DNA of 59,331 nucleotides from Patescibacteria group bacterium (GTDB lineage Bacteria > Patescibacteriota > Microgenomatia > PFEM01 > JAHIFH01). The position numbers and the translations under genes are program-made. The notes below the pieces were generated by a model. It saw only the letters and a program-made list of their open reading frames with translations. It made no database searches and was not told the origin of the DNA. The DNA is taken from the NCBI GenBank assembly GCA_035529375.1, contig DATKWU010000004.1:1-59331 (forward strand), given 5' to 3'. Positions 48,705 through 50,723 of the stretch are shown piece after piece; the first letter of the stretch is position 1; each line of letters starts with the position of its first letter.

Positions 48705-49037
48705 ATGAAATATGCTGTTATCGAGATAAATAATCGCCAACACAAAGTCACTGAAGGTGAAGAATTGGCGGTTGACAAACTTGAAGGTAAAAAAGGAGAA
48801 AAATTAACTTTTGATAAGGTCTTGCTTTTAATTGATGAGAAAAAAAGGTTTATAGGCCAGCCTCTAGTCAAGGGAGCTAAAGTGACAGCCGAAATCATTG
48901 AGCAATTCAAAGACAAAAAGATTAGAGTGGCCACCTACAAAGCTAAATCAAGATACAGAAAAGTAAAAGGTCACCGATCTCAACTAACTAAAATAAAGAT
49001 AAACAAGATTAGTCTTTCTAAATCTTCTTCAAAATAA
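48705..49037 (+). CDS. rplU: 50S ribosomal protein L21
   Basis: MKYAVIE...QHKV.EG, KSRYRKVKGHRS.LT.IKI. Confidence 0.97.
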   Translation: MKYAVIEINNRQHKVTEGEELAVDKLEGKKGEKLTFDKVLLLIDEKKRFIGQPLVKGAKVTAEIIEQFKDKKIRVATYKAKSRYRKVKGHRSQLTKIKINKISLSKSSSK

Positions 49038-49048
49038 AAACCTCATAT

Positions 49049-49077
49049 TTGACGCTATAGGATTATTGTGGTATCCT
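49049..49077 (+). promoter_or_regulatory. Sigma70 promoter TTGACG-17-TATCCT
   Basis: ttgacg 49049-49054, tatcct 49072-49077. Confidence 0.6.
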
Positions 49078-49117
49078 CTTTGACAAGAATCATTACGCAT
49101 GAGAAGAGGAGGTCGAA

Positions 49118-49366
49118 GTGAGAGAAGGAGAATTTGAAGGGAGGCGCCAAGATCTAATAGTTATCCCTACCCAAGAAAGCGTGGCCTCAGGGATGCTATA
49201 CGGTTGTCTAACAAGCGCCAACTTTCGAGAGAAGAGAGGCCTTGTCATTCGAGCTGATGAGCTCGAAGTGACAATCCGGGTTCCGGAAGGCCAGGAATAC
49301 GAAGAAGTTAAGGCATGGGTCAAGAAGAAAGGTAGTGAGCGCAGTCTCATCATTCGGATCACCTAA
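49118..49366 (+). CDS. 82-aa orphan protein
   Basis: GTG start after SD gaggagg; own promoter and terminator. Confidence 0.7.
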   Translation: MREGEFEGRRQDLIVIPTQESVASGMLYGCLTSANFREKRGLVIRADELEVTIRVPEGQEYEEVKAWVKKKGSERSLIIRIT

Positions 49367-49382
49367 TCCATCTTCTTGGCCG

Positions 49383-49420
49383 AAACTGGCTCTTGTTATT
49401 CATAGGCACGAGCCAGTTTT
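49383..49420 (+). terminator. Terminator hairpin, 10-bp stem, 17-nt loop
   Basis: aaactggctc / gagccagttt followed by a T-rich tract. Confidence 0.75.
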
Positions 49421-49583
49421 CTTTTCCCCAAATAAAAACTCGCCTCTAATTAAAAGCTACTTTTAACTTTAAGCGAGTTTACTAGCACATTTTTCTCCTA
49501 CAACGCTTAGAGAAAGAATCGAAAAATTTCAATCCTTTCTGAAAAGGTTGTAGGATTTGAAATGAAAGAAAGAGGAGGGGGTT

Positions 49584-49603
49584 AGTAGTCATCGTTGACT
49601 ACT
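49584..49603 (-). terminator. Hairpin at the 3' end of the Arg-rich gene
   Basis: agtagtca-tcgt-tgactact. Confidence 0.6.
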
Positions 49604-49615
49604 GCTTCCCGATTT

Positions 49616-49876
49616 CTAGTAGGAGTGCCTTAGTTGGCGTAATACCTGTTCGTCTCTATCTCTTGCTTTTCTTGGCCTTCCTGTTTGTCTTCTTCGTCCT
49701 TTCTTCGTTGTTTCCTTTTCTGCTACCCTTTTCAGAGCCATTTTGTGGGCCCGTTGCATGTGTGCGTGGAGTACCCTCGGCGTACCTGTTGGTCTGCAAG
49801 AGTTGGATCGCCTTTCCGAGGCAATCCTCTTGCTTCTGCTCCTATTATATCTCGAACCAGATCTTGGTCTTGCCAT
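49616..49876 (-). CDS. 86-aa Arg/Lys-rich basic orphan protein
   Basis: 21 Arg + 7 Lys; purine-rich SD region (aaaggaagggga) before ATG; downstream hairpin. Confidence 0.6.
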   Translation of the reverse strand: MARPRSGSRYNRSRSKRIASERRSNSCRPTGTPRVLHAHMQRAHKMALKRVAEKETTKKGRRRQTGRPRKARDRDEQVLRQLRHSY

Positions 49877-49969
49877 TTCCCCTTCCTTTCTTCCTTCCTG
49901 TTATGTGCGAGATTTCTATTTTTGTTTATATCAAATTATGGGACTAAAAAGCAAGTACATTTTATAGGA

Positions 49970-49998
49970 TTGATTTGAACCCCTTTTTTTGCTATATT
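49970..49998 (+). promoter_or_regulatory. Sigma70 promoter TTGATT-17-TATATT with TG extension
   Basis: ttgatt 49970-49975; tgctatatt 49990-49998. Confidence 0.6.
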
Positions 49999-50036
49999 TC
50001 CTAACTAAGAGAGGGAGTAAAGTCAAGGAGGGAAGA

Positions 50037-50390
50037 GTGGGTAGTCAAGAGGTCTTCAAGGACTCTTTCTGTAAGAGTCGTCAAGTGGCTGAGGAAATCA
50101 TGTCAGACTTTGCCGCGAGGGCATTCGACTATAAGGGAGCAGAGCTTGTAGTCAAGTTTGAGATGAGGATGAGAATGAGGATGGATTTGGCCATTCGAAG
50201 GGTATCTACGCAGTCTGAGAAGTTGGGATATCTTTTTGGCTATATCAAGGCCGTGAATGGTCTCTTTGAGATAGCGAATAAGAGGCCGAACGCTAACGCG
50301 AACGAGTTGTCTGAAGAATTCAGGAACCTTTTAGCTGTAGCTCAAATACAGCTTCCTGAATATTCATTTTCGGATTCCTTTCTGGAATAG
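50037..50390 (+). CDS. 117-aa helical orphan protein
   Basis: Start reassigned to GTG 50037 after SD aaggagg. Confidence 0.7.
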   Translation: MGSQEVFKDSFCKSRQVAEEIMSDFAARAFDYKGAELVVKFEMRMRMRMDLAIRRVSTQSEKLGYLFGYIKAVNGLFEIANKRPNANANELSEEFRNLLAVAQIQLPEYSFSDSFLE

Positions 50391-50474
50391 AAGCATTTAC
50401 TCCCTCTCTCATCCTCTCTTATTCTTCGTGTAAATATTGACAAGTGTGAAAAAATTTGTTACTTTGATTAGACA

Positions 50475-50723
50475 ATGGCAAAAACTAAAGCTGGTGGCAG
50501 TAAAGCGAGTCAACTATCACCCCGGCCTGGTAAAAGGTTAGGAGTGAAAATTTTTGGTGGCCAGGCAGTCAAGGCTGGTAATATTATTATTCGCCAGCGA
50601 GGAACTAAGTTCCATCCTGGTTCTGGTGTGGGGATTGGCCGAGATCATACCCTTTTTGCTCTTAAAGACGGCATGGTTGAATTTATTAAAAGACAAGGCA
50701 GAAAACTAATCACTGTTTCTTAA
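50475..50723 (+). CDS. rpmA: 50S ribosomal protein L27
   Basis: [47 protein letters not shown]. Confidence 0.97.

Follow-up and report, generated by a model that had tools for sequence, protein, structure and literature searches.

Conserved complementary flanks around an orphan gene between rplU and rpmA in a Patescibacteria group bacterium

To our knowledge, pairing between the 5′ and 3′ untranslated regions (UTRs) of bacterial mRNAs has been documented in a handful of cases, hbs and icaR among them. The stems that flank rRNA operons, which are at least 20 bp long and are cut by RNase III, form a comparable structure around stable RNA. In Bacillus subtilis, fully complementary stretches of 14 nt in the 5′ UTR of the hbs mRNA and just upstream of its terminator pair in vivo and restrain cleavage by RNase Y, and compensatory mutants prove the pairing (Braun, Durand and Condon 2017, PMC5737220). 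In the icaR mRNA of Staphylococcus aureus, a UCCCCUG motif in the 3′ UTR pairs with the Shine-Dalgarno (SD) region, blocks initiation, and makes an RNase III substrate (Ruiz de los Mozos et al. 2013, PMC3868564). According to a preprint, anti-SD-like sequences located several hundred nucleotides downstream in B. subtilis pair with the ribosome-binding site (RBS), promote decay, and block translation (Gill et al. 2025, PMC12697547).

Here, we describe a perfect inverted repeat of 14 bp that brackets a single orphan gene, gene C, in a 59,331-nt stretch of DNA (referred to as the window) from an 844-kb, 95%-complete assembly of the CPR/Patescibacteria type. The complementarity of the flanks of gene C is real and conserved, and it is almost certainly functional. 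They are most likely a natural example of 5′/3′ mRNA end pairing in bacteria, a type that is already known, with two unusual traits: the lack of a terminator and a tandem anti-SD tail that gives two registers.

Layout of the gene C locus

Gene C is located in a 1.4-kb island between rplU (48705-49037) and rpmA (50475-50723). Two other genera of this family and six further families of the order lack the island, and their rpmA follows rplU within about 50 nt. Three self-contained small units make up the island, built around genes A, B, and C, and the gene C unit is the only one without a terminator. By window position, the features of the island are the following.

49118-49366, plus strand: gene A, 82 amino acids (aa), served by its own promoter and by a terminator at 49383-49426
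49616-49876, minus strand: gene B, 86 aa, very basic, divergent from gene C, with a reading frame conserved in three species
49970-49998, plus strand: predicted promoter of gene C, with a −35 element TTGATT (49970-49975), a 17-nt spacer, and an extended −10 element TGcTATATT (49990-49998)
50008-50021, plus strand: left arm P1, AGAGAGGGAGTAAA, a purine-rich, SD-like stretch at the 5′ terminus of the predicted mRNA
50025-50032, plus strand: SD sequence of gene C, AAGGAGGG, 4 nt 5′ of the GTG start
50037-50390, plus strand: gene C, a 117-aa orphan, with a GTG start at 50037 and a TAG stop at 50388-50390
50394-50427, plus strand: G-free tract of 34 nt (41% C) that spans Y1 and Y2 and has no local structure
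50396-50409, plus strand: right arm Y1, TTTACTCCCTCTCT, anti-SD-like, beginning 5 nt past the stop of gene C
50413-50421, plus strand: pyrimidine motif Y2, CCTCTCTTA, which repeats part of Y1 in tandem (10-nt period)
50437-50465, plus strand: rpmA promoter (TTGACA, 17 nt, TACTTT), at the right edge of the inserted island

The two arms of the repeat, AGAGAGGGAGTAAA (50008-50021) and TTTACTCCCTCTCT (50396-50409), are 100% complementary and lie 374 nt apart. A preliminary description of the window had given these arm coordinates together with the spacing to the promoter and to the stop, and every detail proved correct. The promoter matches the consensus at 9 of 12 positions, and the TGc just 5′ of the −10 hexamer TATATT (49993-49998) makes it an extended −10 promoter. 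From this promoter, transcription is predicted to start at approximately 50003 to 50008. The left arm lies 9 nt from the −10 element, and its end is 4 nt from the SD sequence AAGGAGGG, which is complementary to the 3′ end of the 16S rRNA (...CACCTCCTTTCT). Judged by the same rRNA end, P1 is SD-like and both Y1 and Y2 are anti-SD-like; CTCCCTCTCT of Y1 and CCTCTCTT of Y2 resemble the 16S tail CCTCCTTTCT. Y2 is an alternative partner for P1, over 8 to 9 bp.

As the preliminary description had also stated, no conventional terminator follows gene C. An intrinsic terminator (a GC-rich hairpin with a U tract) was absent between 50390 and 50475, and in local folds of the three species that carry the locus (see below), the Y1/Y2 tail had neither a local pairing partner nor a terminator. 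The 34-nt G-free tract is suggestive of a Rho loading site; G-free C-rich tracts are frequent, with 79 in the genome. Genes for Rho, RNase III, and RNase Y are all present in the genome, and the RNase J C-terminal domain was not found there. A search of the region against Rfam gave no match at the gathering thresholds and only noise at E values of up to 5. We also considered an antisense open reading frame (ORF) that begins at the right arm and rejected it, as its start codon changes from ATG to GTG to GTA across the three species.

The products of genes A, B, and C have no match in Pfam, PHROGs, PADLOC, or NCBIfam. For gene C, this agrees with its earlier designation as an orphan, and we found just two further homologues. 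None was present in 60 relatives (0/60) or in 23 genomes of the order, and a search with the single protein returned only its own cluster. The locus of a sister species (L015; the same species is represented by L018 and L019) was recovered by a metagenome scan with the leader pattern, and that of a third species (L016) was recovered by a profile search of 1.84 billion representatives, in which two further matches were false positives (repeat proteins). A second search, based on a word index, found nothing beyond the species of L015, and pattern scans of contigs returned no hit for Y1-Y2 and a leader pattern only in G001, a genome of the same genus. In G001 (L006, G001:C15, 1345-1444), gene C is replaced by exactly 100 N, from inside the left arm to just past Y2, and three other contigs of the same species assemble through the gene C region. 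Contigs identical to that of the window occur in the metagenomes JGI 3300031565 and 3300031566.

The gene C protein is 52% and 32% identical to that of the window in the two other species. Compared with the sister species, dN/dS is 0.43 with a dN of 0.36, and over both species dN ranges from 0.36 to 0.74. For the flanking rpmA and parB, dN is 0.01 to 0.05 and dS is 0.16 to 0.5 in the sister species and 0.9 to 1.2 in the third species; the nonsynonymous rate of gene C is 10 to 40 times higher than that of its neighbors. Gene C is a real gene, under purifying selection yet fast-evolving. The dS of gene C relative to the sister species (0.85) is also above that of rpmA and parB (0.16 to 0.5). High dN and dS inside conserved regulatory flanks suggest old alleles or diversifying selection. 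The AF2 model of the protein has four helices (pLDDT, 88), which predicts a four-helix bundle, and fold searches gave no significant match in PDB or BFVD.

Conservation and predicted pairing of the arms

The noncoding flanks of gene C consist of invariant islands split by variable bases. The islands are the −10 block (TTTTTTGCTATATTTC, identical across the three species), P1, the SD sequence, Y1, Y2, and the rpmA promoter; the cores of P1 (AAGAGAGGGAGTA), Y1 (TTACTCCCTCTCT), and Y2 (CCTCTCTT) are unchanged in all three species. The 12-nt core of the arms is invariant despite a near-saturated synonymous divergence (dS of ∼1). The preliminary description had raised the prospect of homologous flanks that stay complementary with different sequence: complementarity of the ends is indeed kept in both homologous loci, and it is kept by the same core sequence, not by a different one. 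The predicted helices are as follows.

Window species: 14 Watson-Crick pairs, duplex energy of −23.9 kcal/mol
Sister species (L015): 12 Watson-Crick pairs and one G·U, −22.9 kcal/mol
Third species (L016): 14 Watson-Crick pairs and one G·U, −23.9 kcal/mol

Four changes are found at the edges of the arms: two A-to-G changes on the purine arm, one C-to-T change, and one T-to-C change. Both A-to-G changes produce a G·U pair in the sense RNA only, the C-to-T change adds an A-U pair, and the T-to-C change, in L015, breaks one pair. This pattern is compatible with RNA pairing and is too thin for proof: as the 12-nt core has no compensatory substitution among just three species, covariation cannot separate RNA pairing from other constraints on the arms.

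In minimum-free-energy and centroid folds of the predicted transcripts, the purine leader closes onto the pyrimidine tail (z of −2.8 for the window and −6.0 for L015). For transcripts ending after Y2, the partition function gives pairing probabilities between the left core and the tail of 0.99, 0.91, and 1.00 in the three species. The predicted fold of L015 favors a shifted register, and the probability of the window helix drops to 0.02 once 300 nt of rpmA is appended. RNAduplex finds an alternative register in all three species, in which P1 pairs with Y2 and the SD sequence pairs with Y1 (−25 to −26 kcal/mol); it is about as stable as P1:Y1 alone. The strongest helix falls on an SD-like element that precedes the real SD sequence by 12 nt, and the register that covers the true SD sequence does so through SD:Y1, which alone amounts to −11.5 to −15 kcal/mol.

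We see an even chance that the arms are the two halves of an RNA duplex between the 5′ leader and the 3′ tail, of the hbs or icaR kind, which replaces a terminator hairpin. Our data show the complementarity with its placement and three-species conservation, the predicted stability, the lack of a local terminator, and the genes for Rho, RNase III, and RNase Y; the transcription start, the pairing in the cell, the point at which the RNA ends, and the sign of any effect are inferred. Transcription would begin a few nucleotides 5′ of P1, cross the 117 codons, and meet no terminator hairpin. Once transcribed, Y1 would form a panhandle by pairing with the 12 to 15 nt at the start of the message, at about −23 to −24 kcal/mol. 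This helix would serve as a substitute for the terminator hairpin, halting 3′-exonucleases at about 50410 and protecting the 3′ end after Rho-dependent or read-through transcription, and the 5′ end and leader would be buried from RNase Y-type attack. Transcription itself would be ended by Rho on the 34-nt G-free C-rich tail or would continue into rpmA; without a terminator, the RNA may simply run on into rpmA-parB. The register that combines P1:Y2 and SD:Y1 would hide the RBS, which may limit translation of the finished transcript.

Invariant arms that do not covary would also fit a binding site on DNA or nascent RNA, a reading that we consider unlikely and that nevertheless survives best among the alternatives. 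Here, the 12- to 14-bp motif would occur once at the start of gene C and twice, inverted and in tandem, before the rpmA promoter; its binder would be the product of gene B or gene C, and the complementarity would be a by-product. The 10-nt tandem period of Y1 and Y2 is what sites facing the same side of the helix typically show, P1 occupies a classic operator position (about +1 to +14 of the promoter), and gene B encodes, divergently, a small, very basic, and conserved protein. However, neither candidate binder has a recognizable DNA-binding fold, as the gene C bundle is unmatched and the AF2 model of gene B has low confidence (pLDDT, 67). The spacing of the arms (390, 405, and 365 bp in the three species) is not phase conserved, the exact motif occurs nowhere else in the genome, and the edge changes are transitions that are tolerated as G·U in RNA. 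In addition, the same rpmA promoter operates in genera that lack the island, where these motifs are absent.

A very unlikely reading assigns separate functions to the arms, with the left arm as a standby ribosome-binding or translation-enhancer site, the right tract as a Rho loading or insulator site that shields the rpmA promoter, and the match between them due only to their SD-like and anti-SD-like character. A duplex of P1 with the 3′ terminus of the 16S rRNA would indeed have about −10 to −11 kcal/mol, and the G-free tract (41% C) occurs in a genome that carries Rho; against this, G-free C-rich tracts are as common as stated above. Since the other genes of the island and an insertion at the same site in another genus (see below) end in terminators just before the next promoter, some insulator is expected at gene C as well. 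What separate functions leave unexplained is the invariant complementary part of the arms that is not SD-like (GTA/TAC; GTAAA/TTTAC in the window) and the constant duplex energy across species.

Chance, the surrounding island, and other repeats

The genome contains 15 perfect inverted repeats that are 14 bp or longer and have arms no more than 1 kb apart, compared with a mean of 8.6 (range, 5 to 13) in first-order Markov simulations. Gene C is the only one of 874 gene calls with 12 or more complementary bases between the 60 nt upstream and the 60 nt downstream, and the longest complementarity among noncognate flank pairs (n = 8,740) is 13; the gene calls behind these genome-wide flank statistics are crude. 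The repeat is remarkable by its placement and conservation, not by its existence alone.

These figures bear on the possibility that the repeat arose by chance, or is a relic of the terminal repeats of a small mobile element, and has no present function. A genome is expected to hold about nine perfect repeats of this length and spacing, the finding was drawn from a scan of very many windows, and gene C sits in an inserted island. We still give this reading a very small chance: arms placed exactly at the predicted +1 and at the stop are expected only ∼0.03 times per genome, and the arms are invariant over a dS of ∼1 while adjacent bases vary. The motif is also single copy, with neither a target-site duplication nor a transposase. 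A miniature inverted-repeat transposable element (MITE), an insertion sequence (IS), or another dispersed repeat was rejected, as the locus is single copy, the exact 12-mer occurs only at the two arms, no direct repeat lies outside the arms, and there is no transposase.

The preliminary description had regarded gene C as the cleanest case of a "closed-end" layout. End pairing at gene C itself is supported in part. As a general property of the genome, the layout was rejected: cognate flanks are no more complementary than noncognate ones, and neither perfect matches nor duplex energies tell the two apart. A few accessory cassettes of this window do share the layout. Mild enrichment is seen for inverted repeats of 13 nt or more that join neighboring intergenic regions (5 observed versus 1.8 expected), and four of the five fall in this window, one of them in the pair of cassettes described next. 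Two accessory cassettes that encode membrane proteins, 2 to 4 kb from gene C, have arms at 52610-52621/53121-53132 and at 53232-53244/54242-54254, with 12 to 13 nt of complementarity between start and end. They resemble gene C in that the complementarity joins the mRNA start to the region after the stop, around orphan genes. They differ from it in their unrelated sequence and gene family and in having covariation support, of which gene C has none: a C-G pair of one sister cassette corresponds to U-A in the other, a compensatory change.

Two further perfect inverted repeats in the window link neighboring intergenic regions, one of 14 nt (TCAGGAAGAAATTT; 16494-16507/18158-18171) and one of 13 nt (TTTTGAAACCTTT; 15536-15548/16381-16393). 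In these repeats between 15.5 and 18.2 kb, one arm is inside a small ORF, a layout unlike that of gene C, and they may have arisen by chance.

The spacer between rplU and rpmA (window 49038-50425; L005, L007, and L008) is an insertion hotspot. It measures about 50 nt in most relatives, and this genus carries there an island of orphan units of 1.0 to 1.4 kb. Another genus of the same family (G002, L008) has three unrelated ORFs and a strong terminator at the same site, just before the rpmA promoter. The motif of this promoter, TTGACAnnnGTGAAAA, is conserved throughout the order (L005-L014) and stands directly after rplU in genera without the island. The rpmA leader comprises only a few nucleotides and has no SD sequence, and L27 may be translated from a nearly leaderless mRNA.

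Within the island, the gene A unit is bounded by a 10-bp direct repeat, AAATAAAAAC, at 49032-49041 and 49430-49439. The sister species lacks the unit and has a single copy-like site in its place. The flanking repeats together with this absence are what an insertion, or a deletion between the repeats, would leave behind.

The gene B unit has a long structured 3′ UTR and a terminator. A 190-nt noncoding stretch 3′ of gene B (49428-49620, minus strand) is ∼90% identical in the sister species. Its predicted folding is very strong (z of −7.1 on the minus strand and −5.4 on the plus strand), with three hairpins, the last of which is a terminator followed by UUUUUAUUU. The stretch has no match in Rfam and might act as a structured 3′ UTR or as a small RNA. 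An anti-SD-like tract in the gene B 3′ UTR, CCCCCUCCUCUUUCUUUC (49555-49580, minus strand), is complementary to the long, purine-rich leader and SD sequence of the same gene (49877-49900, minus strand). The duplex of tract and leader amounts to −25.6 kcal/mol, about 2 standard deviations better than that of shuffled tails, and a similar anti-SD-like tract is found in the gene B 3′ UTR of the sister species. Genes B and C may share a design principle. A likeness between the N terminus of the gene B protein and L27 was dropped, as it is not conserved in the sister species.

The least probable reading takes the arms as recombination sites of an invertible segment (50022-50395; an inverton) whose flipping would uncouple gene C from its promoter as a phase-variable on/off switch. 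In its favor, a perfect inverted repeat does enclose a promoterless SD sequence and gene with the promoter just outside, and the scaffold gap in G001 starts inside the left arm and spans gene C. Against it, all seven of seven independent assemblies from the three species have one orientation (assembly-level evidence), and the gap ends ∼18 nt beyond the right arm, whereas inversion predicts the inner edge of that arm. G001 was co-assembled with SPAdes, and a hypervariable gene is by itself enough to explain a gap in such an assembly. The island and the DNA within about 9 kb of it contain no gene for a recombinase. Recombinase domains were absent from the island and from the ORFs between 52.3 and 59.2 kb, and the upstream genes are ileS, ftsW, and rplU.

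Comparison with known end-paired RNAs

A broader proposal can be made, which we regard as unlikely: accessory genes newly acquired by these CPR bacteria would share a terminator-less "closed-loop" expression module. In such a module, the mRNA start would pair with a tandem anti-SD-like tail; the tail would define and protect both RNA ends, insulate the next promoter (here, that of the essential, nearly leaderless rpmA), and toggle between SD-open and SD-closed states, confining translation to the nascent transcript. If true, the module would amount to a general design by which orphan genes are fitted safely into core operons. The gene C locus is of interest in its own right as a conserved natural case in an uncultivated lineage with reduced genomes, and it shows that a foreign, fast-evolving gene is tolerated 48 nt ahead of the promoter of an essential ribosomal protein. 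Its lack of a terminator and its two registers would extend the known design space of 5′-3′ UTR pairing, and its ∼60 nt of flanks constitute a compact element for studying the effects of a helix on mRNA ends, stability, and translation.

Of the described systems, hbs is the closest and shares with gene C a 14-nt complementarity between the 5′ UTR upstream of the SD sequence and the 3′ UTR in a short monocistronic mRNA. The duplex energies are similar (−19 kcal/mol for hbs and approximately −24 kcal/mol for gene C), and RNase Y, which acts on the hbs mRNA, has a gene in this genome. The 3′ arm of hbs is just upstream of a normal terminator, whereas gene C has no terminator; unlike hbs, gene C also carries its 5′ arm right at the start of the predicted message and has, on the 3′ side, a second tandem motif that gives an alternative register. 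Pairing is proven by compensatory mutants in hbs and is predicted at gene C.

A resemblance to the rRNA operon stems is that the flanks on both sides of a gene pair across a long loop and set where the released RNA ends. The predicted helix at gene C is shorter, at 12 to 15 bp, and surrounds a protein-coding mRNA, whose cleavage is hypothetical.

With icaR, gene C shares a 3′-UTR motif, C-rich and anti-SD-like, with complementarity to the purine-rich leader of the same mRNA, and the gene for RNase III, which cuts the icaR duplex, is present in this genome. The pairing in icaR hits the SD region, whereas the best helix at gene C is upstream of the SD sequence, which is covered only by the weaker SD:Y1 pairing. 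The 3′ UTRs also differ in length, with ∼45 nt at gene C and ∼390 nt in icaR. The sequences described by Gill et al. are similar in being pyrimidine-rich, anti-SD-like, and located several hundred nucleotides downstream, with the ability to pair with the RBS region. Those sequences, however, are depleted by selection, whereas two anti-SD-like motifs are positively conserved at the gene C locus, and a selected role for them is therefore implied.
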